The notes under the pieces were generated by a model, which saw only the letters and a program-made list of their open reading frames with translations, was not told where the DNA came from and did not search any database. 64,000 bases of DNA from an uncultured Rhizobium sp. (GTDB taxonomy: Bacteria; Bacteroidota; Bacteroidia; NS11-12g; UBA955). This document shows positions 9,386 through 30,200 of this stretch, in pieces. Numbering within the stretch: the stretch's first letter is position 1; every line of letters begins with the position of its first letter. Location: contig CAZYBT010000001.1 in assembly GCA_964645755.1 (NCBI GenBank), positions 25,307-89,306 on the forward strand, read 5' to 3'. The position numbers and the translations under genes are program-made.

Positions 9386-9386
9386 T

Positions 9387-11203: not shown

Positions 11204-12497
11204 AAATTCAATTTTCAAGCAGCAAGTGTTTTGGTCATTGATTATCCGTGGTGGTGGTATAATGATCACATTGATTCAGGTGCCGCTTTTATTGGATATT
11301 ATGCAACAAGAGAAATATGGGGTATGGTTGACTTTACTAAATGTTGTAAATTGGATCTCTGTTTTTGATTTGGGAATAACAAATGGTTTAAGAAACAAGC
11401 TTTCTGAACTTTACATTAACCAAAATCAGAATGATGCAAGGAAGTACATATTCAATGTTTTTTCATTTTTATTTTTATTTTTCTTATTGATTTTCATAAT
11501 TTTTAAATTATTTGAAACACAATTGAATTTTCAGAGTCTATTCAATACGAAAAAAATTTCTGAGAACCAACTTTCTAATATTTTCAACATCGTTTTTAGT
11601 GGTATTATTTTTAGATTTATTTTTCAAATACCGGTGGTTTTAGAAACAGCTAAAGGATATACTCATGTTTCAAATGCATTGTTACTCACAGGTAATATTT
11701 TAGGCATTATTTTCTTGTATATTAGAAGTGTTTTATCGTCTGAAATGATTGAATTAAGTACAGTTGGTTTTTCTGTAGTATGGATTCCCAATATTCTTTA
11801 TTTAATATACTTTTTATGGTTTATTTTCCATGATAATCGTATTTTTATGCCAAGATGGAGTGAGTTTGATTTGCCATTTATCAAACCACTGATGAAAATT
11901 AGTTTTCATTTCTTTCTAATTCAATTAACTGCATTGATCATTTTCGCGAGTATTCCATTTATTCTATCGCAACTTTTAAATCCATCTCATGCAACTGAGT
12001 ACAATTTGGCGAACAGTATTTTCAATATCCCCTTACTTGTAATGGGTGTATTGTGCAATCCAATTACTCCCTTAGTAACTCAAGCATTTGTTCAATCCGA
12101 CAAAAAATGGTTAAGGCAAATTTTAAGAAAATTCAATTTCTATGCCTTAATACTCATCTCAATTACATGGATTTTGTTCTTATTTTCGCAATCGATCTAT
12201 GGCCTTTGGATTGGCAATAAAGTTTCAATAAATGGAGGTTTAGTATTTTGGATTGCGATTTATACATCGGTCAATTTATTTTTGCAGCCTTACACCAATA
12301 TTTACAACGGAATTGGTAAACTTGGCGTTGTTGCTTTTTTGTCGCCTATAGGTGTATGCATTTTTTTATTTTCTGCTTACTATTTAACAAATTTTTTTAA
12401 TAATTCGACAGGGGTTGTAATGGGGTTAATTTTATCATCTTTAATTGGATTAATTTACATCCCTGTAAAAGTGTTCAAGGAAATTCGAAATTTGTAA
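11196..12497 (+). CDS. wzx: Wzx-type oligosaccharide-unit flippase (MOP superfamily polysaccharide biosynthesis protein).
   Basis: 433 aa with about 12 TM segments. N-terminal amphipathic stretch with conserved G/N/R residues typical of PST-family flippases. Located between GT genes. Confidence 0.7.
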   Translation: MDKNSIFKQQVFWSLIIRGGGIMITLIQVPLLLDIMQQEKYGVWLTLLNVVNWISVFDLGITNGLRNKLSELYINQNQNDARKYIFNVFSFLFLFFLLIFIIFKLFETQLNFQSLFNTKKISENQLSNIFNIVFSGIIFRFIFQIPVVLETAKGYTHVSNALLLTGNILGIIFLYIRSVLSSEMIELSTVGFSVVWIPNILYLIYFLWFIFHDNRIFMPRWSEFDLPFIKPLMKISFHFFLIQLTALIIFASIPFILSQLLNPSHATEYNLANSIFNIPLLVMGVLCNPITPLVTQAFVQSDKKWLRQILRKFNFYALILISITWILFLFSQSIYGLWIGNKVSINGGLVFWIAIYTSVNLFLQPYTNIYNGIGKLGVVAFLSPIGVCIFLFSAYYLTNFFNNSTGVVMGLILSSLIGLIYIPVKVFKEIRNL

Positions 12498-13897
12498 TGA
12501 ACAATCTAGACATTAATAATTTATATTTTGTTGCATGGATTTCGACGTTTATTCAATTGCTGACCTTGGTGATGCAATTTGTAAAATATGGGTATAAATC
12601 TTTGTTACATCCGGGATTCTGGTTTGTAACCGTTTGGATTGGTAGTTTTTTATCTTTTATTCTTTATTTAAACATTGGATTTACGTTTATAATTTTTAAT
12701 CCTGAGGATGTAATAGAATTGATGGTATATGTTGATTTTACTTCCATTTGTCTTTTGTTTTTTGGTTGGTTTAAATCCGCTAAAATTAAAGATCATCAAA
12801 TGAATTTTAAATTTGTAATTGAAGAAAAACTCCTTAAATATTTGAGCATTATTTTGTTTTCAGTTGTACTGATTAACTGGTATAAAAGTGGATCAGACAT
12901 CGTTAGTAATAGAGCCGCCGGAAGTGCTGAAATGCTGAAAAATCAGAAAATGGTGTCTCAAATTGGGGTTGCCACATTATTATTCAATATTGCGAAGTCA
13001 GCAAATCTCGTATTGCTTACGTATACCTCTTTTAAAATCACAAAAGCCATTGTTGAGAAAAGTTTTGAGAAGATTAAATTTTATTACTATTTGCCAACGC
13101 TTACTATGATTTTAGGCACAGTGGTTTCCGGCGGTAGGGCGGGAGTAATTTATGCTTTGATTTACTTTTCAACGGGTCTATTTATTGCATTATCGACCAT
13201 GAAAAACGGTCAGTTGTATTTATTAAAAAGAATGAGCGGTTTTATGGCAATTGCATTAGTTGGATTTTCATTGTATTCTACATTGATAAATCAATTAAGA
13301 GCAGAAAGTACAGATTATGATCCTTCATTTGAGAAATGGAAAGATTATCCTGCCTTGGTACCTATCTCGGGAATTGTACAATATCTTACAGACCATTATC
13401 CCGGATATCAACTCAGAAAAGAAGACAGTGTAACGCCTGAACTGGAAATGGGTGAGAAAACATTTTCATTTATATTGTTTTTCAATATTCCATTTATTTC
13501 GCAATTGTACAATGCTCCTATTGGTCTTGCGAGTTACTACGGATTTAAACTGCCAGAAGCGGTTGAATTGGGTGCCAGAGGTCTGGAATGGGAAAATACC
13601 ACCGCCACTATTTTTCTGAATGTTTATGATGATTTTGGTTATTATGGTACCTTCATCGCAATCTTCGTCTTTTGTTTTCTTACCGAATTTGTTTTTACAA
13701 GATTTGTTCTTGCCGATAATGATAATTATCTTATTTCAATGTTCCCTTTTGCAATATTTTTATACCTTTGGACGCAATCTATTTTCTCTCATCATACAGT
13801 AGGAAGTTGGATGGGTACACTTTTTTATCAATATTTAATTTTAGATATTCTCAATTATTTATTTACACCTAGAATCTTGACTACCAAAATAGAATGA
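12497..13897 (+). CDS. wzy: Wzy-like O-unit polymerase (polytopic membrane protein).
   Basis: 466 aa, more than 10 TM segments with one larger hydrophilic loop (about residues 270-330). Follows wzx with a 1-nt overlap. Confidence 0.55.
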   Translation: MNNLDINNLYFVAWISTFIQLLTLVMQFVKYGYKSLLHPGFWFVTVWIGSFLSFILYLNIGFTFIIFNPEDVIELMVYVDFTSICLLFFGWFKSAKIKDHQMNFKFVIEEKLLKYLSIILFSVVLINWYKSGSDIVSNRAAGSAEMLKNQKMVSQIGVATLLFNIAKSANLVLLTYTSFKITKAIVEKSFEKIKFYYYLPTLTMILGTVVSGGRAGVIYALIYFSTGLFIALSTMKNGQLYLLKRMSGFMAIALVGFSLYSTLINQLRAESTDYDPSFEKWKDYPALVPISGIVQYLTDHYPGYQLRKEDSVTPELEMGEKTFSFILFFNIPFISQLYNAPIGLASYYGFKLPEAVELGARGLEWENTTATIFLNVYDDFGYYGTFIAIFVFCFLTEFVFTRFVLADNDNYLISMFPFAIFLYLWTQSIFSHHTVGSWMGTLFYQYLILDILNYLFTPRILTTKIE

Positions 13898-15156
13898 GAA
13901 TACTCTGGTTTACAAATACCCCTTGCGGTGCAATTGGTTATCTAAATCAAAGCCATGCAAGCGGTGGTTGGATGTTATCGCTTGAAAAATTGGTGAATCA
14001 GAGTTGTGAATTGCATGTTGCATTTTATCATCACCAAAAAATGGATTCTTTCTTTTATCAAAATACTTGGTATCACCCTATTTTTATTCCTCAAAATACA
14101 TTCCAAAGGTTGGTTAAACTCTTAAAAAAGAAGTTTTTATCGATTAAAAGTGTTGAATATTTGATCGACGTTATTGATAATGTTCAGCCCAATTTGATAC
14201 ATATTCATGGAAGTGAAAATGATTTTGTTAGGGTCATTGATCGAACAAATATTCCAGTTGTTTTGTCCATACAAGGTATCGCATCATCGGTTTATGCAGC
14301 TTTTAATGGAGGTTTTTCATCAGAAGTTTTGAAAAAAGTTAAAAACAGAAATATTTTATACCATTTATTTGGAATAGGTTTTTTTGAAAAAATGAATATT
14401 GACTTGTATGAGAGATCACTCATTGAAAATCAATATTTGAGTGAAATTAAATATTTCTTCGGCAGAACTCATTGGGATTTTTCTGTGAGCAGGGTTTTTG
14501 CCCCAAATTCTGAATATTTTAAGTTGAATGAAGTTTTGAGGGATTCATTTTATGAAGTTAACCCCAAAAGCAATTATGATATTGGTGATACTTTGAAGTT
14601 GTTTTCAATTTGCTCTAATACACCAAATAAAGGTTTGGATGTCATTATTGGCTGTGTGAATCAATTAAATAAATTGGGAATAAGGCATGAATGGAAATTG
14701 GCTGGGTTATCAAAGAATGACGAAATTGTGCTTTTATCATTAAATAAATTTGGAATTCAAAAGTTACCAGATTCACTTAAATTTATTGGATTTTGTGATG
14801 AGCAGAGTTTACAATCTGAAATAGTTGACGCAGACATTTTTGTATTCACTTCCTATATCGAGAATAGTCCGAATAGTTTAAGCGAAGCGATGATATTAGG
14901 ATTGCCCTGTGTGGCTTCGAATGTTGGTGGTGTTGCATCAATGATAAGTCAAAATCACTCAGGATTATTATTTGCAGCAGGTGACTATTTTATGTTAACT
15001 GGATCTATTTTATCTTTATTAGAATCACAAAAACTAAGAAATAATATTGGAACTCAGGCTAGATTATCTGCTTTGAAATTTCATGATAAAGACATGATTA
15101 TTGAACAGTTGTTTTCTTCATATAAACAAATATTAAATAGAACACGGAATGATTAA
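13894..15156 (+). CDS. GT-B fold glycosyltransferase (GT4-like).
   Basis: C-terminal EX7E-type region …SPNSLSEAMILGLPCVASNVGGVASMISQNHSGLLF. Confidence 0.7.
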   Translation: MRILWFTNTPCGAIGYLNQSHASGGWMLSLEKLVNQSCELHVAFYHHQKMDSFFYQNTWYHPIFIPQNTFQRLVKLLKKKFLSIKSVEYLIDVIDNVQPNLIHIHGSENDFVRVIDRTNIPVVLSIQGIASSVYAAFNGGFSSEVLKKVKNRNILYHLFGIGFFEKMNIDLYERSLIENQYLSEIKYFFGRTHWDFSVSRVFAPNSEYFKLNEVLRDSFYEVNPKSNYDIGDTLKLFSICSNTPNKGLDVIIGCVNQLNKLGIRHEWKLAGLSKNDEIVLLSLNKFGIQKLPDSLKFIGFCDEQSLQSEIVDADIFVFTSYIENSPNSLSEAMILGLPCVASNVGGVASMISQNHSGLLFAAGDYFMLTGSILSLLESQKLRNNIGTQARLSALKFHDKDMIIEQLFSSYKQILNRTRND

Positions 15157-15742
15157 CAGGATAATCAATCACATCAACTTCCGAAGATTACAATGGATCA
15201 AGATATGTTGTACTTTTTTCATTTACATTTTAAATCAGTTGAAGCAAATAAAAATGTTGAATGGAAATCAGTTTTATGGGTATACAAAATTTCATAAGGA
15301 ACAGCATTCTGATATTGATATTGGGAGCAATAATGTTTTTCGATCAAGTAGGTTCTCAAACCTTATTGGAATTAATCGACCCTGCATAATATCGACTTTG
15401 AATCCAAACGCAAAGTTGAAAATTGGAAATAATTGTGGTCTCAGCGGAACAGTGATCAATTGTTTTCATCATGTTTCTATTGGAAATGATGTGATGATTG
15501 GTGCAAATAGTTTGATTATGGATGGAGATTGGCATTTGGAAGATCCAAGAGCTGGTGATTCAAAATCAATCATATTAGAGGATAATGTTTGGATTGGTGA
15601 GGGTGTAAAGGTTCTAAAAGGCGTGAGAATCGGGCGAAACAGTGTAATTGGTGCAGGAAGCATTGTAACAAAAGATATTCCTCATAATGTATTCGCTGCT
15701 GGTAATCCTTGTAAAGTATTAAAGAATTTAAATGAGTCATAG
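15149..15742 (+). CDS. Left-handed beta-helix (hexapeptide-repeat) O-acetyltransferase, WbbJ/maltose-acetyltransferase-like.
   Basis: Repeating [LIV]GxxxxI hexapeptides: IGANSLIMDGD…VWIGEGVKVLKGVRIGRNSVIGAGSIVTKDIP. Confidence 0.75.
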   Translation: MINRIINHINFRRLQWIKICCTFFIYILNQLKQIKMLNGNQFYGYTKFHKEQHSDIDIGSNNVFRSSRFSNLIGINRPCIISTLNPNAKLKIGNNCGLSGTVINCFHHVSIGNDVMIGANSLIMDGDWHLEDPRAGDSKSIILEDNVWIGEGVKVLKGVRIGRNSVIGAGSIVTKDIPHNVFAAGNPCKVLKNLNES

Positions 15743-16931
15743 AAAAGGGGTGATTTTTCTACATGAAGGTACATTCCCTGACGGATATGCAATGGCATTT
15801 CGATTGAGAATGTACACTGAGATGTTGGAGAATGATTTTGATGTTAAGGTACTTGTGCCACGTTTACCAAAGTCAAATGATAATTCAAAGAAATATCAAT
15901 TGTTTACGCTTTGGAATAGAAATGTCTCTTCAAATATTTTAGTCAGGAAGTTATCTTATTACATTCAAGATTTAAAGTGGACGTACTTTTTATATCAAAA
16001 CAGAAGTCAATTCGATGTGATATTTGTGGCAGCAATGTCGATTTTTCCATTGCTCGTGATTACACTTTTTGCAAAACTTTTTTCCAAGAGATTAATTTTG
16101 GAATTAAATGAATTTCCTTATTCTAGCCAAGGTGGTAATTTTATTGATGACCTAAATGGTTATAAAAGGTACAGGAGATTTTTAACGGAAAATTTAATTT
16201 ATAAAAATTGTTTTGGGGTAATTTCTATTTCGCCCAAATTAACTCAATACATCAAAAAATTAGTGCCAAATATTAGAGTGGTTGAAATTCCAATTCTGTG
16301 TGATGTTCAGTATTTTAATTCTTTAGATAGTATAGAATCAGCTCAACCTCACAAACAAAAATACACCGTTCATGCAAGTAATTTAAGTGAATACAAGGAT
16401 GGATTTAGTACCAATTTGAAGGCAATTGGAAAATTTAATCTCGAACAAGTAAAAGAAGATGATAAAATTCATCTTTACATTACATTAGATGGAATACCTC
16501 CGCTTTTATCTCATTCAATAAATCAAATTTTAACAACTTACGACCTCCATTCTTTTGTTCATTTTATTGGTTATCAAGATGATATAAGTTTATTTAATTT
16601 GTACAAAAATGCCGCATTTCTCATCATCAACAAACCAATAAATCTTCAGAATGATTACAATTTCCCAACTAAATTATCTGAATATTTATATTTTTCAAAA
16701 GCATTATTGGTTTCTACAAACAATGCGATGGATCAGTTTCTAGAAGATTCTCAAAATTGTTTGAAGTTTGAATCTAATAACGACCAAGATTTATTAAATC
16801 TCATCAAAAAATTGCTATCTAATCAGATTCAAATGAATGGGTTGAATTTTAATGCGAGAAATACGGTAACTCAACATTTTGACTTTCGTATGAATGCCGC
16901 AAAATTAAATCTCTTCTTTCGTAACGCGTGA
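15732..16931 (+). CDS. Probable GT-B glycosyltransferase.
   Basis: 399 aa, C-terminal E…E region (FPTKLSEYLYFSKALLVSTNNAMDQFLED). Family assignment weak. Confidence 0.5.
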   Translation: MSHRKGVIFLHEGTFPDGYAMAFRLRMYTEMLENDFDVKVLVPRLPKSNDNSKKYQLFTLWNRNVSSNILVRKLSYYIQDLKWTYFLYQNRSQFDVIFVAAMSIFPLLVITLFAKLFSKRLILELNEFPYSSQGGNFIDDLNGYKRYRRFLTENLIYKNCFGVISISPKLTQYIKKLVPNIRVVEIPILCDVQYFNSLDSIESAQPHKQKYTVHASNLSEYKDGFSTNLKAIGKFNLEQVKEDDKIHLYITLDGIPPLLSHSINQILTTYDLHSFVHFIGYQDDISLFNLYKNAAFLIINKPINLQNDYNFPTKLSEYLYFSKALLVSTNNAMDQFLEDSQNCLKFESNNDQDLLNLIKKLLSNQIQMNGLNFNARNTVTQHFDFRMNAAKLNLFFRNA

Positions 16932-18034
16932 AAAAATATATTTTAAATACGATTAAAAATTTTGGTCCCAAGGTTCACTCTAAGATCGTCATTTTTGAAT
17001 CCGATGATTGGGGCTCGTTTAGAATTCCCAATAATAGTGCTTATCAAGCTCTTGAAGCAAAAGGAGTTCAATTAAAATTTCCGGGTTCAGATCAATACAA
17101 TCTTTATGATAATTTGGAGAGCACCCATGATCTCGAACTGTTATTTGAATTACTCACTTCGCATAAAGATCATCTAAACAATCCTGTTACTTTCACTCCA
17201 CTCTCGTTGGTGGCTAATCCAGATTTTAAAAAAATAAAAGAATCTGGTTACCAACATTATTTTTCCCTTAATCTGAAAGAATCATTTGACCATTATAACA
17301 AGGGTAATGTGCTTGATTTATATTTTAAAGGAATTTCAGAAGGAATTTTTCTTCCTCAATTTCATGGAAGGGAACATCTAAATGTAGCAGTTTGGATGAG
17401 AGCCTTGCAAAATAATATTGGTGATTCTAGAATAGCGTTTGAACAAGAGGTATGGGGACAAATCAACACGCATCCTAATCATATTTTTTATCAAGCGGCA
17501 TTCGATTTAGAATACCCCGGAGATATAACTTCACAAAAGGAGATCATTCAAAATGGTTTAGAATTGTTTAAAAGCACATTTGGATATAAAGCCGAATATT
17601 TTGTCCCTCCAAATGGACCAATGAACAATCAATTGTTACCAATATTGGCTCATTGTGGAATCAAATTAATTTCATCTGATACAATACAATTAGAGGTTTT
17701 GGGAAATGGTAAGACCTCTAAACATTTTCGATATATGGGAATGAAGAACAAGTTTGGACAGAGATTTATTAAGCGAAATTGCTTTTTTGAGCCTTCTGGA
17801 AGAGATAAAGATTGGGTTGATTCGTGTTTGAGGGACATTGAGTTAGCATTTAGATATGGTAAACCTGCTGTGATTAGTACGCATAGGGTAAATTATGTGG
17901 GTGATCGAAATGCCGACAATCGAGATTTTGGTTTAAAACAATTGGATAAACTCATAAAATTGATGCTTCTAAAATGGCCAGATATTGAGTTTACGAATAC
18001 GCCTAAATTATTTGATTATTTCGATAAAAATTGA
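16928..18034 (+). CDS. Divergent polysaccharide-deacetylase-like (CE4-like) protein, paralog A.
   Basis: Motifs FESDDWG (CE4 motif-1-like D-D) and QFHGREHLN (motif-2-like H-x3-H). 368 aa, cytoplasmic-looking with no signal peptide. Confidence 0.5.
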   Translation: MKKYILNTIKNFGPKVHSKIVIFESDDWGSFRIPNNSAYQALEAKGVQLKFPGSDQYNLYDNLESTHDLELLFELLTSHKDHLNNPVTFTPLSLVANPDFKKIKESGYQHYFSLNLKESFDHYNKGNVLDLYFKGISEGIFLPQFHGREHLNVAVWMRALQNNIGDSRIAFEQEVWGQINTHPNHIFYQAAFDLEYPGDITSQKEIIQNGLELFKSTFGYKAEYFVPPNGPMNNQLLPILAHCGIKLISSDTIQLEVLGNGKTSKHFRYMGMKNKFGQRFIKRNCFFEPSGRDKDWVDSCLRDIELAFRYGKPAVISTHRVNYVGDRNADNRDFGLKQLDKLIKLMLLKWPDIEFTNTPKLFDYFDKN

Positions 18035-19140
18035 AATTAATAAATAAACTTAAACAAAATTTAATTTCGATTCCTGGTACAAAGGTTAATCGAAAATTGG
18101 TAATTTTTGAGTCAGACGATTGGGGAGCAGAGAGAATTCCAGACAAATCAACGAAAGACGAACTGCTTCGTTTGGGATTGATGGATAAAAAAAACAAATT
18201 TAATTTAATCGATACTTTAGAAAGCTCTGATGATTTGATTTCACTGTATGATTTGTTGTCTAAATATAAAGATCGCAATGGTAGAACGCCTGTTATTACA
18301 ACCAATTTTTTAACGGCGAATCCGGATTTTGAACAAATTAAACGCAGTGAATTTCAAGAATATCATTACGAATCTATTGAAAAAACCTATGAAAAAAAAG
18401 CTGATAATCAGAGTGTTTTGAACTTAATTTTAGAGGGAAAACAATCTGGATTAATAAGGCCTCAATTTCATGGTAGAGAACATATTCATGTTACCCAATG
18501 GATGAGAAGGTTGAATATTGATGATTCAGTATCCCGAAAATCATTTGATTTTGGTGTTTTTTGCTTAGATGATAATGGTGGTGGACATCGTGAAAATTTA
18601 ATGGCCGCATTTGATTATCAAACTGAATCTGAGGTTGATTTAATGAATGATATTTTCATATCTGGCTATCAACAGTTCGAAAAGATTTTTGGATATAAAT
18701 CAAAATCAATGATTGCTCCATGTTACGTTTGGGGAAATAACATTGAAAAAGTTTCGAGTGATTTGGGGGTCAATTTCATTCAAGGTATATTCAATCAATA
18801 TATTCCAACATTGGGTGATGAAAAGTATCATTTAACATGGCATTTTTTGGGTGATAAAAATAAATTTGGTCAGCGCTATCTGGTGCGGAATGCATTTTTT
18901 GAAGTATTTGAAAACGATCAAATGGATTATGTAGATACATGTTTAAAGCGAATTGAAATTGCATTTAGATGGGGAAAACCTGCTATCATTGGAACGCACA
19001 GAATTAATTTTGTTGGTGGACTCGATGAAAAAAATAGAATGAATTTCCATAAGAAATTAGAAGAATTAATAAAAAAAATGTTACAAAAATGGCCGGATTT
19101 AGAATTTATTTCTACCGACCAATTAGAAAATTATCTTTGA
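18031..19140 (+). CDS. Divergent polysaccharide-deacetylase-like (CE4-like) protein, paralog B.
   Basis: Same motifs (FESDDWGAERIP; QFHGREHIHV). Collinear with the upstream paralog at roughly 35-40% identity. 369 aa. Confidence 0.5.
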   Translation: MKLINKLKQNLISIPGTKVNRKLVIFESDDWGAERIPDKSTKDELLRLGLMDKKNKFNLIDTLESSDDLISLYDLLSKYKDRNGRTPVITTNFLTANPDFEQIKRSEFQEYHYESIEKTYEKKADNQSVLNLILEGKQSGLIRPQFHGREHIHVTQWMRRLNIDDSVSRKSFDFGVFCLDDNGGGHRENLMAAFDYQTESEVDLMNDIFISGYQQFEKIFGYKSKSMIAPCYVWGNNIEKVSSDLGVNFIQGIFNQYIPTLGDEKYHLTWHFLGDKNKFGQRYLVRNAFFEVFENDQMDYVDTCLKRIEIAFRWGKPAIIGTHRINFVGGLDEKNRMNFHKKLEELIKKMLQKWPDLEFISTDQLENYL

Positions 19141-20246
19141 TGGCTTTTGAAAATAAACACATTTTAGACTTACAACCTTATAAGGTGGCAAGTCACAAAA
19201 TTTGGGAAGTAGCATCTTCCGAACGTGCTGAAGTACTGAAACTTGATTGGAATGAAGCAACCGTGCCACCAAGTCCTATGGTGCAAAAACGGATATTAGA
19301 ACTTGTAAGCGGTCCAAATTTCTATAATTTATACCCAGCAACGCATAGTGAAGTATTGCATGAAAAACTCTGCAATTATGCCCAGGTTAAAAAGGAAAAT
19401 CTCCAGTATTTCCCGAGCTCTGATGCTTTGCATGAGTATATAGCAACAGTATTCTTAAGCGAGAAAGATACAGTATTGTTATTAGGTCCAACTTATGATA
19501 ATTTTAGATTAACTTGTGAATCACACGGAGCCAAAACAGAATATTTTAATTATTCGGAAACCTTTGAGTTAAATGTAGAATTTTTTGAGAATAAAATAGA
19601 AAATATTCACCCTAAATTGGTATACATCTGTAATCCAAATAACCCCACAGGAAATTTAATTTCAACGGATTATATCGAAAGCCTGTTACTGAAATTTCCA
19701 AATGTGCTTTTCCTTATAGATGAAGCCTACACAGAGTTTAGCGGTCATTCGGTGAAGGATTTTGCCCATCAGTTTTCGAATTTATTGATCACACGAACTT
19801 TGTCGAAGGCTTTTGCTTTGGCAAATTTTAGAATTGGATATCTCATTTCGTCGGAAGAAATTATACGCAATATCTCAAAAATTCGCAATCCTAAGAATTT
19901 CACTACATTTTCGCAGGAGGCTACAATTGCTGCATTATCGGATGTTGAATATATGCAAAACTATGTTGAGGAAGTAAAAACTGCAAAAGCAAAATTTATC
20001 GATTTTCTTTCTAAAAATGGCCAGAGAATTATTCCTTTCAACGGACACGGAAATTTTATTTTAATTAAGTTTGAATCTGATGAAATTAAAAATAAATTCA
20101 TTGAATTTATGGAGTTCAATAATATTTTCTTGAGAAATTTAACTCATAGTTCTTTGCTAAATAAATGCCTCAGGATCACAATTGGTAATGTAAAACAAAT
20201 GCAATTTGTACAAGATAAAATTACTGAATTTTGGCAGAAAAATTGA
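19140..20246 (+). CDS. Class-II PLP aminotransferase of the histidinol-phosphate aminotransferase (HisC/CobD) family. Predicted sugar-decoration precursor aminotransferase (Cj1437-like).
   Basis: Start at the ATGA overlap (19140). LDLQPYKV…LKLDWNEATVPPSP…YP…; the Lys region is …LITRTLSKAFALANFRIGY (SKxF/GxR motif of HisC-like enzymes). Confidence 0.7.
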   Translation: MAFENKHILDLQPYKVASHKIWEVASSERAEVLKLDWNEATVPPSPMVQKRILELVSGPNFYNLYPATHSEVLHEKLCNYAQVKKENLQYFPSSDALHEYIATVFLSEKDTVLLLGPTYDNFRLTCESHGAKTEYFNYSETFELNVEFFENKIENIHPKLVYICNPNNPTGNLISTDYIESLLLKFPNVLFLIDEAYTEFSGHSVKDFAHQFSNLLITRTLSKAFALANFRIGYLISSEEIIRNISKIRNPKNFTTFSQEATIAALSDVEYMQNYVEEVKTAKAKFIDFLSKNGQRIIPFNGHGNFILIKFESDEIKNKFIEFMEFNNIFLRNLTHSSLLNKCLRITIGNVKQMQFVQDKITEFWQKN

Positions 20247-20908
20247 ATCAAAATATTGTAATTTTTGATTTCTGTGAAACATTGGTCAATTTTCAAACTG
20301 CAGATGCCTACGTTGATTTTGTTCGGAGAAAATTGAACCATCCCAGAATGAAATTTCTTGAATGGATTTTGACATTTTTAATCAAGACAAAAATTATTTT
20401 GATTTTATATAAACTGTTTCCATATCATTCTATTGAGAAAAGAATAAAATTATATCAATTAAAAGGTTTCAGTAAAACTCAATTGATTGAATTTGCAGAA
20501 CAGTTCTATTTACAAAGAATCAAACCCAATACAATTGATCCAGTTTTGCACTTAATGCGTAATTATCAGTTGAATAATGATGTGATTTATATTGTTTCGG
20601 GTGGATATTCAATTTATCTAGATTTCTTTTGTAACGAATTTAACATCCCTCATTTATTTTCAACAAAAATTGAATTTCAAAACAATATTTGTACAGGGAA
20701 AATAAAAGGATTAGATTGCCTTTATCATCATAAAATAAAATTGTTGGTGGATAAAGGAATTGAAAATGGACAAGGAATTGTTTGTTATACTGATAGTATT
20801 ACGGATTTGCCTTTGTTAGATTTTTGTGAAACTGGTATTGTTATTTCGAAAAACTTTGAACAGGCTTGGGCAAAAAAATACGGGTTTAAACAGTTGATTT
20901 GGAGTTAA
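20231..20908 (+). CDS. HAD-superfamily phosphatase (phosphoserine-phosphatase-like subfamily IB).
   Basis: N-terminal HAD motif I variant IVIFDFCETLV. Downstream SGG and C-terminal D residues (YTDSITDLPLLD). Confidence 0.6.
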   Translation: MAEKLNQNIVIFDFCETLVNFQTADAYVDFVRRKLNHPRMKFLEWILTFLIKTKIILILYKLFPYHSIEKRIKLYQLKGFSKTQLIEFAEQFYLQRIKPNTIDPVLHLMRNYQLNNDVIYIVSGGYSIYLDFFCNEFNIPHLFSTKIEFQNNICTGKIKGLDCLYHHKIKLLVDKGIENGQGIVCYTDSITDLPLLDFCETGIVISKNFEQAWAKKYGFKQLIWS

Positions 20909-21846
20909 TGAAGCGTTTTTTTTCTAATTTAAAATATACAGGTAGAGTTGGTTTTTATTTATTTTTATTTATTGTAAAAATTTATAAATTATGCGTAAAT
21001 TATATTTGGCCGGATAAATATTATTTGAAGAAAAAATTTAAATTCTATCATGGGTATGATTTGGATTGGAATAATCTGAAATCATTGAATGAGAAAATGC
21101 AATATTTCAAAATTTATGATCGAAACCCGAAATATGTCAATCTCTCAGATAAGTATAAAGCGAGAGATTTTTTCGAGAATGAGTTTGGAGCTAATTATTT
21201 AATTCCTTTGATCATGCAAACTCAAAATGTTGAAGATTTGAGGCCGGACAATTTGCCCGATTATCCAGTAATAGTGAAAGCAAATCATGATTCTGGAAAT
21301 TTTAGAATTATTCGAAATAAAGATGAGTTTGACTTTAAAAAATTGCAAGTAGATGCAAAATTTTGGATGAGCATGAACTATTATTGGGAAGATCGTGAAT
21401 GGCCATATAAACATGTTGAACCGAGAATAGTGGTTGAAAAATTGCTTTTGACTCAAGAGGGTAAAATTCCGAATGATTATAAATTGAATTGTTTTAACGG
21501 AAAGGTTGAATTTGTTTATGTTTCGGTTGATAGAGAAGGTATAAACAAACGGAACATATATAGCCGTTCATGGGAGCCCTTAAATTTCACTTGGAATAAA
21601 AAATATTACGATCATTCAACTCTTCGTGGCCCTGAAATAGATCCCCCTGAAACATTTCCATTAATGCTTGAATTTGCTGAGAAAATTGCGAAGGACTATC
21701 AATATGTGAGGGTTGATTTTTATGATGTTGATGGGAAATTGTATTTTGGTGAAATTACACAATATCACGGTGGAGGATTCGATCAAATGCTTCCTCGAGA
21801 GTGGGATTACAAGTTTGGAGAAATGATCAATGTGGAAAGAATATGA
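20899..21846 (+). CDS. TupA-like ATP-grasp amidoligase.
   Basis: 315 aa. VIVKANHDSGN…EPRIVVEKLL…PNDYKLNCFNGKVEFVYVSVDR…NIYSRSWEPL… matches the characteristic TupA-like ATP-grasp layout (D-Y-K-x-x-C-F-N-G). Confidence 0.7.
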   Translation: MELMKRFFSNLKYTGRVGFYLFLFIVKIYKLCVNYIWPDKYYLKKKFKFYHGYDLDWNNLKSLNEKMQYFKIYDRNPKYVNLSDKYKARDFFENEFGANYLIPLIMQTQNVEDLRPDNLPDYPVIVKANHDSGNFRIIRNKDEFDFKKLQVDAKFWMSMNYYWEDREWPYKHVEPRIVVEKLLLTQEGKIPNDYKLNCFNGKVEFVYVSVDREGINKRNIYSRSWEPLNFTWNKKYYDHSTLRGPEIDPPETFPLMLEFAEKIAKDYQYVRVDFYDVDGKLYFGEITQYHGGGFDQMLPREWDYKFGEMINVERI

Positions 21847-22709
21847 CGAGTAATTCCTCACTTGTGAGTGTTTTAATGCCTGTTTTCAATGGTATTGAAA
21901 CTATTGAATTAGCAATTAAGTCGCTGCTATTACAGACATATGAAAATTGGGAATTGATTATTGTAAATGATGGTTCAACCGATGGTACAAAATTGTATTT
22001 AGATAATTTAATTCTCACCGATGCGCGGTTCAAAGTTATTCATTTGGCAAAAAACATGGGGCGGGGTTATGCTCGAAATCAGTGCTTAGAAAATGCAAAA
22101 GGAGAATTTGTTGCATTCTTAGATTCTGATGATTTGTATATGCCCACTAAATTGCAAAAGCAGGTGGAATTTCTCGAGAATAATCAGGAAATTAGTTTGG
22201 TAGGTTGTGGTGTTGGTATTTTGGATGATTTGTCGCAAGTAAACTATGTTCGAGGCAATAAGAACGAAGTTTTTTTTCATGTAAATTATCAAAATTTAAA
22301 TTTTGTTGCTCCCTCTGTGATGTTTAAGAGATTTTTGGATCCAAATTTGAGATACAATCAAAAGTTAGATATTATGGAAGATGTGGATTTCTTCAATCGG
22401 TATCTGCTAAACAGGAAATACACAAACATCTCAGAAGTTCTTTACATTTACTCTGAAATTGGACTGATTTCAAAATCTAAATTACTGAAATACTCATTGC
22501 ATACTGTAAAATATTATTGGATTTTTTTAAAAACAGATTTTAAATTGTTGTCAAAATTCTTTTTATCAATCATCAATCTCTTGTCAAAATTGATACTTGT
22601 ACCAATTTTAGGTGTTGATTTTTTTCTAATACGCAGAAGTAGAAATATTGAATCAAATGTAAAGTTAGATTTGGAGAATTTCGTGAAATTAATAAAAGTG
22701 AAAGATTGA
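21843..22709 (+). CDS. Family 2 glycosyltransferase.
   Basis: VSVLMPVFNGIETIELAIKSLLLQTYENWELIIVNDGSTDGT…FLDSDD (DxD). Start taken at the ATG overlapping the upstream stop. Confidence 0.8.
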   Translation: MTSNSSLVSVLMPVFNGIETIELAIKSLLLQTYENWELIIVNDGSTDGTKLYLDNLILTDARFKVIHLAKNMGRGYARNQCLENAKGEFVAFLDSDDLYMPTKLQKQVEFLENNQEISLVGCGVGILDDLSQVNYVRGNKNEVFFHVNYQNLNFVAPSVMFKRFLDPNLRYNQKLDIMEDVDFFNRYLLNRKYTNISEVLYIYSEIGLISKSKLLKYSLHTVKYYWIFLKTDFKLLSKFFLSIINLLSKLILVPILGVDFFLIRRSRNIESNVKLDLENFVKLIKVKD

Positions 22710-23791
22710 AAATAGTATTTGTAACAACATCTTTTTTAGTTGGTGGTCTCGAAAGATCTAGTGCTAACATTTCTAATTATTTATGCAATTTACCAGGTGT
22801 TCAATTAACTGTAGTTACTCAATATAAATTCAAACATTTTTATCATATTGATGAGAAAATAAGAGTAGTCGAACCTGAATTCAAAAAAGATGGTGTTGCA
22901 AAATTATTGTACTATTTGAAAGTAGTTTTTTTCTTCAGAAAGCAATTTATTTTAGAAAAGCCAGATGTAATTCTCAGTTTTGGTGAACACTGTAATTTCC
23001 AAACGCTTTTGGCGGGAGTTTTTTTAAATATTCCAATTATTGTATCTGACAGAGCAAGTCCTGAATTAGAAATTGCATTTCCAACAAATATATTTAGGAA
23101 GCTCACTTATCCTTTAGCAAGTGGATTTATTGCACAAACGGATAGAATGAAACAGTCATTGATTCAGAAATTTGGAATTAAAGCCCCAATAAATGTTATA
23201 CCAAATGCCATCCGTCAGGTTAAACTTTATCCTGACATTCAAAGAAAAAATCAAATCATTGCTGTTGGTAGAATACATCCCATTAAGCAGTTTGATTTGT
23301 TAATTGAAGCGTTTGAAGCCGCAGACACAAAAGATTGGGAATTATTGATTATTGGGGAAGGGGTTGATTCTCATAAAATTGAACGGCGAATTTTAAACAG
23401 TATCAAATCAGATTTTATACATTTAGAAGCCAAGACACTAAACTTAGATCAGAAGTTCGCAGAATCTAAAGTTTTTGCATTAACGAGTGTGAGTGAAGGT
23501 TTTCCAAATTCTTTGTGTGAAGCGATGGCTGCAGGTTTGATTTGTGTCAGTTTTGATATTGTTGCAGGCCCGCGTGAGATTATCAATCATGGAGTCAATG
23601 GTATTTTATTACCACCTAAAAGCACTCACGCTCTTAAAGAAAGCTTCAATAATATCATTGAAAATGAAAGCAAGTATGCTATGATGTCACAGAATGCTTT
23701 AAAAATCAGTGAGGAACTTACAATTGACAAAATTGGCGATCAATATTTGCAGTTTTTAATTTCTCAGTCAAAGTCGGCTAATGCGAGATAA
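22706..23791 (+). CDS. GT4-family glycosyltransferase.
   Basis: …SVSEGFPNSLCEAMAAGLICVSFDIVAGPREIINHGVNGILLP (EX7E region). Confidence 0.75.
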   Translation: MKIVFVTTSFLVGGLERSSANISNYLCNLPGVQLTVVTQYKFKHFYHIDEKIRVVEPEFKKDGVAKLLYYLKVVFFFRKQFILEKPDVILSFGEHCNFQTLLAGVFLNIPIIVSDRASPELEIAFPTNIFRKLTYPLASGFIAQTDRMKQSLIQKFGIKAPINVIPNAIRQVKLYPDIQRKNQIIAVGRIHPIKQFDLLIEAFEAADTKDWELLIIGEGVDSHKIERRILNSIKSDFIHLEAKTLNLDQKFAESKVFALTSVSEGFPNSLCEAMAAGLICVSFDIVAGPREIINHGVNGILLPPKSTHALKESFNNIIENESKYAMMSQNALKISEELTIDKIGDQYLQFLISQSKSANAR

Positions 23792-24950
23792 ACGTATTCT
23801 TATTATTTCGGTTTTCGGTAAAGTCAGAGAAGAAAGCAATGACCGGGTAAACAATCTTTATGATTTTTCTCCTTTTAAATCAAAGAAAATTGTGACCACA
23901 AATTTTAGTCATCATAACAAAGCTAAAAGGGTGGGTCCCGACATAAGAAATGTAGACTACATTGAGGTACCTGAATATCGTAAAAACCTAAGCTTTAACC
24001 GAATATGGTCGCATTGGGTATTTGCTTTCAGGTTGTATTTTTATTTGAGGGACATTCAAGAAAAACCAGATGTTATTTATTGTGTGCTTCCAACGCCAAC
24101 TTCAGGATTAATAGCTGGTTGGTACGCAAAAAAGCATAAAATTACTTTTGTGACCGATATCATCGATGTGTGGCCCGATGGTTTGTTTCCTATAAATTCG
24201 GTATTCAATAAACTCAAATGGATTTTCAAACCATGGGAAATACTGTCTGCGAAAGTTTATAGAATGTCGGATTTTATCTGTGCTGCAAATAGAAGTTATG
24301 CTTCAATAGCAAGAAGGTATGTAACAGATATTCCTGTAAAACATTTTTATCTTGGCACAAGTTTTGATAATGAAAATAGTCAAACCATTTTAAATCCGAT
24401 TTCAAAACCATTGGACGAGATTTGGATAGGATATGGTGGTAATTTAGGACATCTTTACGATTTTGATCTCATGATAAATGGAACTCTGGAGGCGATGCAA
24501 AGCACACAAATGAAAGTAAGGTTTATACTTGTGGGTGGGGGTGTTTTGGAAGATGAACTCAGACAAAAATTAACAAAAGTAAATGACCTTCCATATCTTA
24601 TCACTGGTAATGTTGGCTATCAAGAATTCATGCAATATTTAGAAAAGTGTGACATATGTCTCAATTTATTTAAAGCAAATGCACTTATTTCGATGAGCTA
24701 CAAACTTTATGATTATTTTGCTTGTAAATCATTTGTAATGAATAATTTAACAGGAGATGCGGACGAAATAATTAATGAGTTTGCTGTTGGTTTGAATGTG
24801 AATAACGAAAATTTCAGCCAAAAATTAACCGAAGCAATGATTTATTTACCAACTTTTCAAAAAGAAAAACATGAAAAATTTGAAAAAGTTTATCGCGTAT
24901 TAGATAGAAAAAAAATTATACAATCAATCTACCAATTTATACAGAAATGA
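23781..24950 (+). CDS. Probable GT-B glycosyltransferase (WbuB-like).
   Basis: 389 aa. N-terminal …ILIISVFGK… and C-terminal …YKLYDYFACKSFVMNN… regions are consistent with GT4-like enzymes. Weak. Confidence 0.5.
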   Translation: MRDKRILIISVFGKVREESNDRVNNLYDFSPFKSKKIVTTNFSHHNKAKRVGPDIRNVDYIEVPEYRKNLSFNRIWSHWVFAFRLYFYLRDIQEKPDVIYCVLPTPTSGLIAGWYAKKHKITFVTDIIDVWPDGLFPINSVFNKLKWIFKPWEILSAKVYRMSDFICAANRSYASIARRYVTDIPVKHFYLGTSFDNENSQTILNPISKPLDEIWIGYGGNLGHLYDFDLMINGTLEAMQSTQMKVRFILVGGGVLEDELRQKLTKVNDLPYLITGNVGYQEFMQYLEKCDICLNLFKANALISMSYKLYDYFACKSFVMNNLTGDADEIINEFAVGLNVNNENFSQKLTEAMIYLPTFQKEKHEKFEKVYRVLDRKKIIQSIYQFIQK

Positions 24951-25585
24951 AAACCATTAAATTTGACTCTCAAAAATTAAACTTTAAAGCTAGATTCGAA
25001 CAATTTTTGAATCTGGGTCTTCTCGAAAATTTAAATCTTGAAATTGAGGTTTTAAAACGTGAAAATGATCAAAAAACACCAATTCACACCGTGTATTACG
25101 AATGGGCGAGAACTGAAGAATTTCAAAATTTGTACGTTGAACTATTAAGAGATTATGTAAAGCCATTATATGACGGAGAGGAAATTGTTTATCAGAAAAT
25201 TCCAACTTTTAGGGTTGCATTTCCAAACAATATTGCTGTAGGAGAATTCCATAAAGATAAGGCCTATAGAGATTTATCTTGGGCAGAACAAGTGAAAGAA
25301 GATAACTTTTTTTTACCTTTCACAGATGCCTTCGATACCAATACAATTTGGGTTGAATCTGAAGAAGACAAGGGCGATTTTGCACCAATGAATTGTGAAT
25401 ATGGAAATACTATTCAATGGAATGGTAGTAATTTAACTCATGGTAACAAGATCAATGAAACTGGAAAAGCGCGCGTGAGTGTTGATTTTAGAGTCATTAG
25501 AATGTCGAACTACACCCCAAGCACCAAAGGTTCAATTAATATGAATGTTGGATTTGCCATTGGTGGTTATTACGATGTAATTTAA
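24947..25585 (+). CDS. Hypothetical soluble protein of unknown function within the polysaccharide locus.
   Basis: 212 aa ORF coupled (ATGA) to the flanking GT gene. No motifs I can assign. Confidence 0.4.
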   Translation: MKTIKFDSQKLNFKARFEQFLNLGLLENLNLEIEVLKRENDQKTPIHTVYYEWARTEEFQNLYVELLRDYVKPLYDGEEIVYQKIPTFRVAFPNNIAVGEFHKDKAYRDLSWAEQVKEDNFFLPFTDAFDTNTIWVESEEDKGDFAPMNCEYGNTIQWNGSNLTHGNKINETGKARVSVDFRVIRMSNYTPSTKGSINMNVGFAIGGYYDVI

Positions 25586-25595
25586 ACTGATTGAA

Positions 25596-26198
25596 TTGAT
25601 TTATTTAGTTTTTAAAACTTTCTTTGATTTTCTTTTTGCACTTTTGCTTTTGATTTGCTCAACTCCCGTTTGGCTATGGCTGTTGTTCAAGTTTAAATTT
25701 GATCTGAATAAAATTATTTTTTTTCAACCACGTCCAGGTAAAAATGGAAAGATTTTCAATTTAATTAAATTCAAAACAATGACAGATGAAACGGATGAAA
25801 ATGGAAACTTGCTTCCTGATAAGTATAGGTTGACAAAGTTTGGTAAATTTTTAAGATCCTCTTCATTTGATGAACTCCCACAGATGATCAACGTTTTAAA
25901 AGGTGATATGAGTCTTATTGGCCCGCGTCCATTATTGGTTTCGTATTTGCCTCTCTATAACGAAAGACAAATGAAACGTCACAACGTAAAACCTGGAATT
26001 ACCGGTTGGGCCCAAATTAATGGGCGTAATGAACTCACTTGGGCAGATAAATTTGAACAAGACGTATTTTATGTTGAGAATATTTCATTAAAATTGGACC
26101 TAATTATCTTTTGGAAAACAATTGTGAATGTAATGAATCGACAAGGAATCAGCGGAGAGGGAACAGAAACGATGACACCATTTAAAGGAAATAATTGA
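25596..26198 (+). CDS. Small PglC/WbaP-C-terminal-type phosphoglycosyltransferase (initiating undecaprenyl-phosphate sugar-1-phosphate transferase).
   Basis: Single N-terminal TM segment, then …FNLIKFKTM…KFGKFLRSSSFDELPQMINVLKGDMSLIGPRPLL, the bacterial sugar transferase signature. Confidence 0.85.
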   Translation: MIYLVFKTFFDFLFALLLLICSTPVWLWLLFKFKFDLNKIIFFQPRPGKNGKIFNLIKFKTMTDETDENGNLLPDKYRLTKFGKFLRSSSFDELPQMINVLKGDMSLIGPRPLLVSYLPLYNERQMKRHNVKPGITGWAQINGRNELTWADKFEQDVFYVENISLKLDLIIFWKTIVNVMNRQGISGEGTETMTPFKGNN

Positions 26199-26199
26199 C

Positions 26200-26844
26200 A
26201 TGAAACCAATCATTATATACGGAGCCGGCGGTTTTGGAAAAGAAATTGCTTGTTTGATTAATGAAATCAACGAAATTGAACCAAAATGGGAGATCCAAGG
26301 ATTTTTAGATGATGGTTTGCCCGTTGGAACCGAAATTAAGTACGGAAAAGTTCTAGGAGGTATCGATTTTATCAATCAATATGAAACTGAAATTGCAGTC
26401 GTGTTCTCCATTGCAAATGCTCTAATTTTAGAAAAAGTGGTTTCTAAAATTACCAATACTAAAGTTTATTTCCCTAACATTATATCACCTGGCGTAAAGT
26501 TTTATGATAGTCCTTCCTTTAACATTGGAAGAGGGAATGTAATCTCGAACGGGTGCAGATTTAGTTGTGATGTATTGGTTGGTGACTTTAACTTATTCAA
26601 TGGCTTTGTTGCTGTTGGTCATGATGTTACACTTGGTAATTTTAATATTTTTAGTCCTTCTTCTCGTTTATCAGGTGGGGTCCAAGTGGGACACAAAAAT
26701 TTTTTTGGGGTTAATTCTATCGTACTTCAAGGCATTACAATTGGCAATGAAACCAAAATTGGTGTCATGAGTGTATTGATGAAAGATACAAAAGATGGAT
26801 ATTTGTACTTTGGTAATCCAGCCAGGAAATTAACAGAGCAATGA
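26200..26844 (+). CDS. PglD/NeuD/WeeI-family sugar N-acyltransferase (N-terminal Rossmann-like domain plus left-handed beta-helix).
   Basis: MKPIIIYGAGGFGKEIA N-terminus characteristic of PglD/NeuD. C-terminal hexapeptide repeats (VGHDVTLGNFNIF…GVNSIVLQGITIGNETKIG). Confidence 0.75.
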   Translation: MKPIIIYGAGGFGKEIACLINEINEIEPKWEIQGFLDDGLPVGTEIKYGKVLGGIDFINQYETEIAVVFSIANALILEKVVSKITNTKVYFPNIISPGVKFYDSPSFNIGRGNVISNGCRFSCDVLVGDFNLFNGFVAVGHDVTLGNFNIFSPSSRLSGGVQVGHKNFFGVNSIVLQGITIGNETKIGVMSVLMKDTKDGYLYFGNPARKLTEQ

Positions 26845-27911
26845 GTTTTTTAAATATTCCAAATGTTTCTATTACGGGAATTGCGTCTAGTGTCCCTCCT
26901 GAAAAAATAGAGAATTTAACTTCTCCAATTTTCGATTGTGAAGAGGATGCTACTCGATTTATCGAAACTACTGGAATTTTAAGAAGAAGGGTTGTGGGAA
27001 AATCAAATGTTTGTACTTCAGATTTGTGCATCGATGCTGCAGAAAAATTGATTGCAACTAAACATTGGCACAAAGAAGATATTGATTGTTTGATTTTTGT
27101 AACTCAAACACCAGATTACATTTTACCTGCAACCTCCTGCATTATTCAAGACAGGTTAGGATTGTCAAAAGAATGCTATTCCATTGATATTTCACTGGGC
27201 TGTTCAGGTTGGGTCTATGGACTATCTGTTATTGGTTCATTGATGCAAGGTGGTATGTTTAAAAAGGGACTACTTTTGGCTGGAGATACAACCACTGTTT
27301 CTAAATCTTCAAAAGATAAGAGTACCTTCCCTTTGTTTGGTGATGCGGGGACTGCAACGGCTTTAGAATACAACGAAAATTCAGCGGGTATGAAGTTCCA
27401 TTTTGGAACGGATGGATCAGGATTTGAATCAATCATGATTCGAGATGGTGGATTTAGACACCCGTTTTCGGCAGAATCTTTGGTTGAAAAGGAGTTTGCT
27501 GGTGGAATTATTCGCAACGAATTGCAAAGCATTTTAAATGGTGCCAATGTATTTACTTTTGGCATTGGACGTGCTCCAAAATCAGTGAAAGCGCTTATAG
27601 AGAAATTTGGTATTCAACTAGAAGAAGTAGATTTTGCTGTTTTTCATCAAGCAAACAAAATGATGAATGAAAAAATTCGAAACAAGTTAAGTCTACCCGA
27701 AGAGAAAGTGCCGTATTCAATCTCCGATTTTGGAAATACTTCTTCAGCCTCAATACCATTAACAATGAATTTAAAATTATTGGAAAAACTGAAATCCCAA
27801 AAAAATAAGATCATTGCTTGTGGCTTTGGTGTGGGATTATCTTGGGGTACTGTATACTTTGAAACTGAAAATATTGATTGTCCTGAAATTCAGGAATATA
27901 AATTAAACTAA
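26841..27911 (+). CDS. 3-oxoacyl-ACP synthase III-like condensing enzyme (KASIII/FabH family), copy 1.
   Basis: FabH-like topology: …LIFVTQTPDY…SLGCSGWVYGLSV (active-site Cys)…FHQANKMMNEKI…FGNTSSASIPL…CGFGVGLSWG. Confidence 0.8.
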   Translation: MSFLNIPNVSITGIASSVPPEKIENLTSPIFDCEEDATRFIETTGILRRRVVGKSNVCTSDLCIDAAEKLIATKHWHKEDIDCLIFVTQTPDYILPATSCIIQDRLGLSKECYSIDISLGCSGWVYGLSVIGSLMQGGMFKKGLLLAGDTTTVSKSSKDKSTFPLFGDAGTATALEYNENSAGMKFHFGTDGSGFESIMIRDGGFRHPFSAESLVEKEFAGGIIRNELQSILNGANVFTFGIGRAPKSVKALIEKFGIQLEEVDFAVFHQANKMMNEKIRNKLSLPEEKVPYSISDFGNTSSASIPLTMNLKLLEKLKSQKNKIIACGFGVGLSWGTVYFETENIDCPEIQEYKLN

Positions 27912-27913
27912 CT

Positions 27914-28141
27914 ATGGAAGAGAACTTTATTAAACTTTTTAGAGAAACTTTAGAAATTGAAGATCGAGAAATATCTGTAAATGATGCATTTAGAGATTTT
28001 CCTGAATGGGATTCATTGGCATTGCTTTCTGTGATTGCAATGATTGATGATGAGTATGATATAATCATTGAAGGAAATGATTTTGCCAAATTAAAAACTG
28101 TTGGCGAACTCATTGATACAATTAAAAAAATGCAAGCTTAA
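27914..28141 (+). CDS. Acyl carrier protein (dedicated).
   Basis: 75 aa, four-helix pattern, phosphopantetheine-attachment motif …DFPEWDSLALLSVIAMI. Confidence 0.8.
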   Translation: MEENFIKLFRETLEIEDREISVNDAFRDFPEWDSLALLSVIAMIDDEYDIIIEGNDFAKLKTVGELIDTIKKMQA

Positions 28142-29962: not shown

Positions 29963-30200
29963 GGTTTTTGTGATAAAATGTTATACGTTTAACACAAAAT
30001 TAGTATCATTCAAGTTTTCTTAACATACGGGTTTTGTTTAATTTTGTAAGCACAAATTTAGAATCAAGAGAACTACAAATTATTTTTGGCAAGGTTCTTG
30101 ATTAAGTCAAATCAAACAATGAAAAACTTAACAGCAAAAATCATCATTGAAACAACATCAATTAATTTTGATGTGATTTTTGCAATTCTTAGAAATTCTT

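Follow-up and report, generated by a model that had tools for sequence, protein, structure and literature searches.

The closest described relatives of the locus considered here come from Campylobacter jejuni. In strain NCTC 11168 (HS:2), Cj1437 converts dihydroxyacetone phosphate into (S)-serinol phosphate by transamination, Cj1436 converts L-serine phosphate into ethanolamine phosphate by decarboxylation, and Cj1435 takes the phosphate off, with the function of the C-terminal domain of Cj1438 (Cj1438C) described in the same studies (PMC11800397, PMC11800379). The equivalent enzymes of serotype HS:19 are HS19.10, HS19.11C and HS19.09 (PMC13276843, PMC10919079). The acceptors characterised for the C. 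jejuni enzymes are glucuronic acid (GlcA) residues only. Here we describe three overlapping open reading frames (ORFs) at 19140-21846 on the + strand of a 64-kb stretch of contig CAZYBT010000001.1 (the window), which comes from an uncultured bacterium placed by GTDB in the Bacteroidota. They encode a HisC-like pyridoxal phosphate (PLP) aminotransferase (AT), a HAD-IB hydrolase (HAD) and a TupA-like ATP-grasp protein (GRASP). Comparison with the Campylobacter proteins makes it likely that this trio is a serinol-phosphate amidation module for a sugar carboxylate, orthologous to Cj1437, Cj1435 and Cj1438C.

AT (19140..20246, + strand, 368 aa) is classed as a Cj1437-type PLP aminotransferase of HisC-like fold type I (Pfam Aminotran_1_2, E 3e-49). 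HAD, classed as a Cj1435-type HAD-IB phosphatase, follows on the same strand from a TTG at 20231 (or TTG 20243) to 20908 (225 aa; PF12710, E 1e-17), and GRASP, a stand-alone TupA-like ATP-grasp amidoligase, occupies 20908..21846, also on the + strand (312 aa; PF14305 ATPgrasp_TupA, E 5.7e-47). Domain matches of this strength in all three ORFs rule out chance reading frames. Sequence identical to the window is present on contigs of three very large NCBI assemblies (GCA_013582305.1, GCA_013572825.1 and GCA_013566075.1), and public gene calls on these contigs give the same three genes. Serial numbers above one million in two of the contig names point to a mixed or host-associated assembly of great size, not to the genome of an isolate. 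The closest homologues are from Bacteroidota metagenome-assembled genomes (MAGs). A first-pass annotation, made from the letters of the window alone, had placed the three genes at 19140-21846, as the ORFs and domain matches bear out. It had also proposed translational coupling through ATGA and ATG-TGA junctions; the genes do overlap, but the junctions are of other kinds. TGATG (19138-19142) is common to the end of the upstream gene and the start of AT, the TTG start of HAD (rather than an ATG) overlaps the AT stop TGA at 20244-20246, and TAATG (20906-20910) is common to the end of HAD and the start of GRASP, the sole true ATGA lying between GRASP and the next gene, a GT2 glycosyltransferase (21843-21846). 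Because such overlaps continue into the neighbours on both sides, the trio is not a self-contained three-gene unit but belongs to a more extended series of overlapping genes (~10283 to 25585), and no terminator-like sites were found on the + strand between 15000 and 26000.

The aminotransferase separates from genuine HisC by score, identity and location. Its best NCBIfam model is TIGR01141 hisC, at 251.2 bits and thus under the equivalog cut-off of 276.55, and a Campylobacter orthologue from the Cj1437 position also falls below that cut-off by about the same margin (246 bits). AT is 43-46% identical (275-277 bits) to the Cj1437-position enzymes that lie between Cj1438-like and Cj1435-like genes in Campylobacter and Helicobacter, and 29-30% identical (130-133 bits) to three solved HisC proteins (3ffh, 3hdo and 1fg3), so that it is nearer to the former than to bona fide HisC. 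It is encoded within a polysaccharide cluster (~1253 to 31406), outside any histidine-biosynthesis genes. The protein carries the LSKAF lysine motif and both arginines aligned with E. coli HisC R322 and R335. We also attempted to split HisC from the Cj1437 type at the level of residues, and this was abandoned as non-discriminating: the positions aligned with E. coli HisC Y55, D85, Y110, K214, R322 and R335 are all kept in AT. By homology, AT is predicted to make (S)-serinol phosphate from dihydroxyacetone phosphate and L-glutamate.

HAD matches TIGR01488 (HAD-IB subfamily) at 55.7 bits, above the cut-off of 45, and aligns with Cj1435 from end to end (28% identity, E 2e-21), the N-terminus FDFCETLxNFQTxDxY being common to both. 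HAD enzymes usually have an aspartate two residues after the nucleophilic aspartate of motif I. Motif I of the window HAD is FDFCETL, with a cysteine at Asp+2 instead of the usual second aspartate, and this form is present in Cj1435 and in every homologue found, including all five cassette HADs that were chosen independently of the motif. HAD is accordingly described here as a predicted phosphatase that would strip the phosphate from a serinol-phosphate amide after ligation.

GRASP covers profile positions 1-240 of the 241 of PF14305 (160.7 bits; cut-off 25). The Cj1438 and Cj1435 sequences used throughout were taken from the supplements of later papers. By BLASTP, GRASP is 31% identical to Cj1438C (E 3e-34), and an hhalign comparison of GRASP-group and Cj1438C-group profiles, the check that the first-pass annotation had proposed, gave a probability of 100% (E 5.5e-51) over 271 columns. 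Taken with the AT and HAD comparisons above, these figures agree with its suggestion of a C. jejuni-like enzyme set. GRASP is not fused behind a GT2 domain, unlike Cj1438 and HS19.11. It is predicted to couple serinol phosphate to a sugar carboxylate with ATP. A sequence search of the PDB with GRASP returned no match, even at E 1. An N-terminal membrane anchor on GRASP was considered and found unsupported, as the hydropathy threshold (a Kyte-Doolittle mean of 1.6 across a 17-residue stretch) is reached in only 6 of the 119 homologues.

To place the trio in a wider context, an alignment of HAD and Cj1435 was used as the query in a scan of one genome per species, which returned 49 loci, 34 of them outside Campylobacterota. 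AT, HAD and ATP-grasp genes stand within 3.5 kb of each other in 23 of these 34, nearly always in the order of the window, and four more carry a Cj1436-type decarboxylase in place of AT. A PLP enzyme, HAD and ATP-grasp thus occur together in 27 of the 34, with the rest mostly cut by contig ends. Sampling from the ATP-grasp side gave the same upstream genes for 4 of 4 close homologues. The carriers include Flavobacterium, Chitinophagaceae, Bacteroidales, Prevotellaceae, Paludibacteraceae, Rikenellaceae, Gastranaerophilales and two gammaproteobacterial MAGs, and the linkage of AT, HAD and ATP-grasp is seen in at least five lineages. This conserved linkage is an observation of the same standing as the domain content and homology of the three proteins. 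In Campylobacter and Helicobacter the order is Cj1438-like, aminotransferase, sometimes a second PLP enzyme, then Cj1435-like, in agreement with the numbering Cj1438-1437-1436-1435. AT and HAD form a single 634-aa ORF in one Gastranaerophilales rumen MAG (locus L035, 6750-8651); this fusion could be real or could be an assembly frameshift, the genes being separate and overlapping in another Gastranaerophilales locus (L040).

The PLP enzymes of the cassette split into two clean groups. Four Flavobacteriaceae loci (L029 and L031-L033) have in the AT slot an enzyme that is 51-58% identical to Campylobacterota enzymes of the Cj1436 position and only 23-26% identical to the AT group, and the window AT is only 24-27% identical to the Cj1436-type clade. 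The cassette therefore occurs in transaminase and decarboxylase forms that, judged by homology, match the two C. jejuni branches. Replacement of AT by a Cj1436-type decarboxylase at the same position of the cassette has one sensible reading, namely that the PLP enzyme supplies the amine. The first-pass annotation had reported no Cj1436-like decarboxylase in the window and on that ground had preferred serinol to ethanolamine. Pfam scans of the window agree with it, as does a tblastn search of the 64 kb with two proteins of the decarboxylase clade, in which only a weak cross-match to AT itself appeared (24%, E 4e-11). The decarboxylase form of the cassette exists elsewhere and the window holds the AT type only, so a serinol-type decoration is favoured over an ethanolamine one.

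Several observations weigh against the assignment of the trio to serinol amidation of a uronic acid. First, the orthology of AT to Cj1437 is indirect, since the Cj1437 stand-ins were orthologues assigned by synteny (loci L005, L006, L007, L013 and L043) rather than the NCTC 11168 protein itself, and at 43-46% identity to these Campylobacterota enzymes the substrate of AT could be shifted. The same three-step logic might then operate on another keto-phosphate, which AT would transaminate to an amino alcohol other than serinol. The HisC/CobD family, as listed in NCBIfam, does cover enzymes for several phospho-amines, and diversity of the amine evidently exists, because a third, unrelated PLP enzyme lies next to another TupA-like ATP-grasp in a Bacteroidales MAG (locus L028). 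We nevertheless regard a different amino alcohol as unlikely: the cassette AT clade is coherent across phyla (37-60% identity) and holds the same position as Cj1437, and the sole alternative enzyme seen in its slot is of the Cj1436 type, which mirrors the serinol and ethanolamine pair of C. jejuni. As a separate observation on L028, its segment 925-9559 contains three TupA-like ATP-grasp genes, one of which adjoins this third PLP type, neither Cj1437-like nor Cj1436-like, and this suggests several distinct amide decorations in one polysaccharide.

Second, GRASP is no closer to Cj1438C (31%, 115-128 bits) than it is to the remaining TupA-like paralogues of the fetched loci (33-36%, 135-171 bits). 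For this reason the similarity of GRASP to known proteins was rejected as a guide to its amine, and its specificity for both amine and acceptor is read from gene context alone. Members of the TupA-like family are in general predicted to decorate surface polymers with amino acids (PMC13419641), and one could imagine that GRASP ligates an amino acid in free form, as has been suggested for TupA, WemR and many O-antigen amidoligases, with AT and HAD unrelated or in a supply role and AT possibly a genuine HisC. Public pipelines do label the AT homologues histidinol-phosphate aminotransferase or transaminase, and with the residues aligned to E. coli HisC D85, Y110, R322 and R335 in place, HisC-like binding would be possible. 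These points are outweighed by the score of AT under the hisC equivalog cut-off, its place in a polysaccharide operon rather than a his operon, the recurrence of the AT-HAD-ATP-grasp linkage across lineages with one fusion of AT to HAD, and the Cj1435-specific motif I of HAD. The exchange of AT for the Cj1436-type decarboxylase likewise makes sense only if the PLP enzyme provides the amine, and we consider ligation of a free amino acid highly improbable.

Third, a source of the acceptor sugar is missing from the neighbourhood. A first, stricter Ugd motif pattern gave no match in the window, and a looser pattern followed by tblastn with two Ugd proteins found no ugd or other nucleotide-sugar 6-dehydrogenase gene in the 64 kb, which upholds the first-pass statement that the window holds no UDP-glucose 6-dehydrogenase. 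On an identical contig, the housekeeping genes der and rlmN lie directly upstream of the gene for the Wza-like protein that opens the cluster, so the cluster does not reach a ugd in that direction either. Most Bacteroidota cassette loci have no Ugd within 8 kb; among the fetched loci, those with one inside this distance were limited to three Campylobacter loci and two gammaproteobacterial MAGs.

These absences, together with the tight coupling of the cassette in Flavobacteriia and Chitinophagia to ArnD/CE4-like proteins that Campylobacter lacks (see below), would fit a system in which serinol phosphate is made but is joined to something other than a Ugd-derived hexuronic acid. Its place could be taken by an aminouronic acid bearing an N-acetyl group, by a nonulosonic or ulosonic acid, or by an acidic substituent that is not a sugar. 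Such an acceptor seems rather improbable to us, given that GlcA residues are the only acceptors characterised and that the cluster showed no pyruvyl-transferase or nonulosonate synthase domain. A ugd gene is, moreover, commonly encoded apart from the cluster that uses its product. In Parabacteroides goldsteinii, a TuaD-like UDP-glucose 6-dehydrogenase directly precedes AT, HAD and ATP-grasp, the AT there being 53% identical to that of the window (NCBI name 'histidinol-phosphate transaminase [Parabacteroides goldsteinii]'), and a UDP-glucose 6-dehydrogenase also lies near the trio in the two gammaproteobacterial MAGs. Because Ugd directly precedes the P. goldsteinii trio, a uronic acid is the most likely acceptor; for the window this is argued by analogy, with the precursor gene presumably elsewhere in the genome. 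On a P. goldsteinii-type contig (locus L061, 7618-12003), a 99-aa ORF right after the ATP-grasp gene matches the C-terminal dehydrogenase domain only, and it looks as if the trio there had been inserted beside, or into, a dehydrogenase gene.

With amidation of a uronic acid by serinol phosphate retained as the preferred reading, the substrates, the order of the steps and the acceptor can be proposed by homology to the C. jejuni enzymes. AT would transaminate dihydroxyacetone phosphate with glutamate to give (S)-serinol phosphate. GRASP would then use ATP to activate the C6 carboxylate of a uronic acid already present in the growing repeat unit and couple it to the amine of serinol phosphate. 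Because the cluster is of the Wzx/Wzy type, the substrate of GRASP would most likely be an undecaprenyl-diphosphate-linked oligosaccharide at the cytoplasmic face of the membrane. HAD would remove the phosphate, so that the serinol amide left behind is neutral, and the next glycosyltransferase would then act. The donor of the uronic acid, probably UDP-GlcA, would be supplied by a dehydrogenase encoded outside the cluster.

The cluster that contains the trio begins with Wza- and Wzc-like export proteins, followed by a CDP-hexose pathway of the RfbF/RfbG/RfbH type, to which an RmlC-like epimerase and a reductase belong. Next come a Wzx flippase and a probable polymerase, then six glycosyltransferases and one acetyltransferase, and after them the pair of unannotated paralogues and the trio. 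The cluster continues with an initiating phosphoglycosyl transferase and a NeuD/PglD-like acyltransferase, two FabH-like enzymes accompanied by an acyl carrier protein (ACP) and a ketoreductase, and a LegC-like aminotransferase. The locus is therefore of the Wzx/Wzy type, not the ATP-binding cassette (ABC) transporter capsule type of Campylobacter. Within it, the CDP-hexose branch (5693-10286) is complete-looking, with RfbF, RfbG and RfbH above their NCBIfam cut-offs ahead of the epimerase and reductase, and it suggests a 3,6-dideoxyhexose in the same polysaccharide. The acyltransferase, FabH-like enzymes, ACP, ketoreductase and LegC-like aminotransferase stand together at 26200-31406, beside the initiating transferase (25596-26198), and have the look of a biosynthetic module whose product is an N-(hydroxyacyl) diamino sugar.

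Directly downstream of the trio, the ATG of the GT2 glycosyltransferase gene (21843..22709, + strand) overlaps the GRASP stop in the ATGA noted above. Its product matches PF00535 (E 1e-35), and its best NCBIfam match is TuaG, over the N-terminal half only and at 120 bits against a cut-off of 400. By analogy with the GT2 domain fused to Cj1438, this enzyme may add the next sugar. A similar GT2 gene after ATP-grasp is mostly missing from related loci, so the pairing is not conserved.

Immediately upstream lies the pair of paralogues from an unannotated family, U1 (16928-18034) and U2 (18031-19140), both encoded on the + strand, and the stop of U2 overlaps the start of AT. The proteins are 38% identical to each other and match no Pfam or NCBIfam family, bar a weak match to GH57. 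They belong to a large family called only 'hypothetical protein' publicly, which is common in Bacteroidota polysaccharide clusters and often present in two copies. A confident AlphaFold2 model for the family (pLDDT 93.5) shows a barrel whose best fold matches, at modest TM-scores (0.4-0.5), are to ArnD, to polysaccharide deacetylases of family CE4 and to GH57 enzymes. The invariant ESDDWG, HGREH and later His-Arg of the family resemble the metal and catalytic motifs of CE4 enzymes, in what looks like a metal-dependent deacetylase-like site. The family stands before the cassette in many Flavobacterium and Chitinophagaceae loci and also in Rikenellaceae. It is present as well in 3 of 3 sampled clusters without the cassette, and the cassettes of Bacteroidales, Gammaproteobacteria and Campylobacterota lack it. 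Since the family occurs without the cassette and the cassette without the family, U1 and U2 were rejected as a required part of the module and are treated as neighbours. One may still ask whether, in Flavobacteriia and Chitinophagia, the trio and the coupled ArnD/CE4-like proteins (16928-19140) act as a four- to five-gene unit on a lipid-linked intermediate, with an acceptor that is perhaps not Ugd-derived GlcA. We find this improbable; if true, the decoration chemistry would be one that has not been observed in Campylobacter.

The proposed mechanism is already known; the novelty lies in the addition of this locus to its carriers and in how widely the cassette occurs. The first-pass annotation knew of no characterised module outside Campylobacter, and the searchable literature does describe the serinol and ethanolamine amidation pathway for C. 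jejuni only, although the primary papers on the Cj enzymes might still mention homologues elsewhere. A search for literature on the genes behind serinol amides in other organisms (e.g., E. coli O143 and marine bacteria) found nothing usable. If our reading is true, amidation of sugar acids with serinol or ethanolamine is not peculiar to Campylobacter but is carried by a portable cassette, which within Bacteroidota reaches Parabacteroides goldsteinii, a species of the human gut, as well as Prevotellaceae, rumen Bacteroidales, Flavobacterium and Chitinophagaceae, and which is also present in Gastranaerophilales and in some Gammaproteobacteria. The amino alcohol would then be predictable from the PLP enzyme in the variable slot, a transaminase indicating serinol and a decarboxylase ethanolamine, so that a charge-neutralising decoration could be read from the genome. 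A recurrent database name would become correctable as well, since the homologues of AT are the proteins labelled as histidinol-phosphate enzymes, and cultured organisms would be offered in which the chemistry can be tested.

Compared with the known systems, the window trio shares its three enzyme families, and its setting in a surface-polysaccharide locus, with the Cj1437, Cj1438C and Cj1435 of C. jejuni NCTC 11168 (HS:2) and with the HS:19 set. The arrangement differs, being AT-HAD-GRASP in the window and GRASP-AT-(decarboxylase)-HAD in C. jejuni, and the window GRASP, besides having no GT2 fusion, is without the ~35-residue insertion of the Cj1438C group. The window cluster also has neither a ugd nor a Cj1436 decarboxylase. 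It is of the Wza/Wzc/Wzx/Wzy type, with an initiating phosphoglycosyl transferase, whereas C. jejuni has an ABC-transporter (Kps) capsule, and for this reason the acceptor in the window should be lipid-linked rather than a growing polymer. The Cj1436-type L-serine-phosphate decarboxylase, which the window lacks, belongs to the same PLP fold family as AT. HisC shares the fold, the PLP lysine motif and the R322- and R335-aligned residues with AT, which differs from it in score, identity and polysaccharide context. The TupA/WemR-type amidoligases of teichuronopeptide and O-antigen loci have in common with GRASP the PF14305 domain and ATP-dependent amide formation on an acidic surface polymer. Their proposed role is the addition of amino acids or peptides, and they have no linked PLP enzyme and phosphatase, unlike GRASP, whose linkage to AT and HAD implies that the donor is a phosphorylated amino alcohol.

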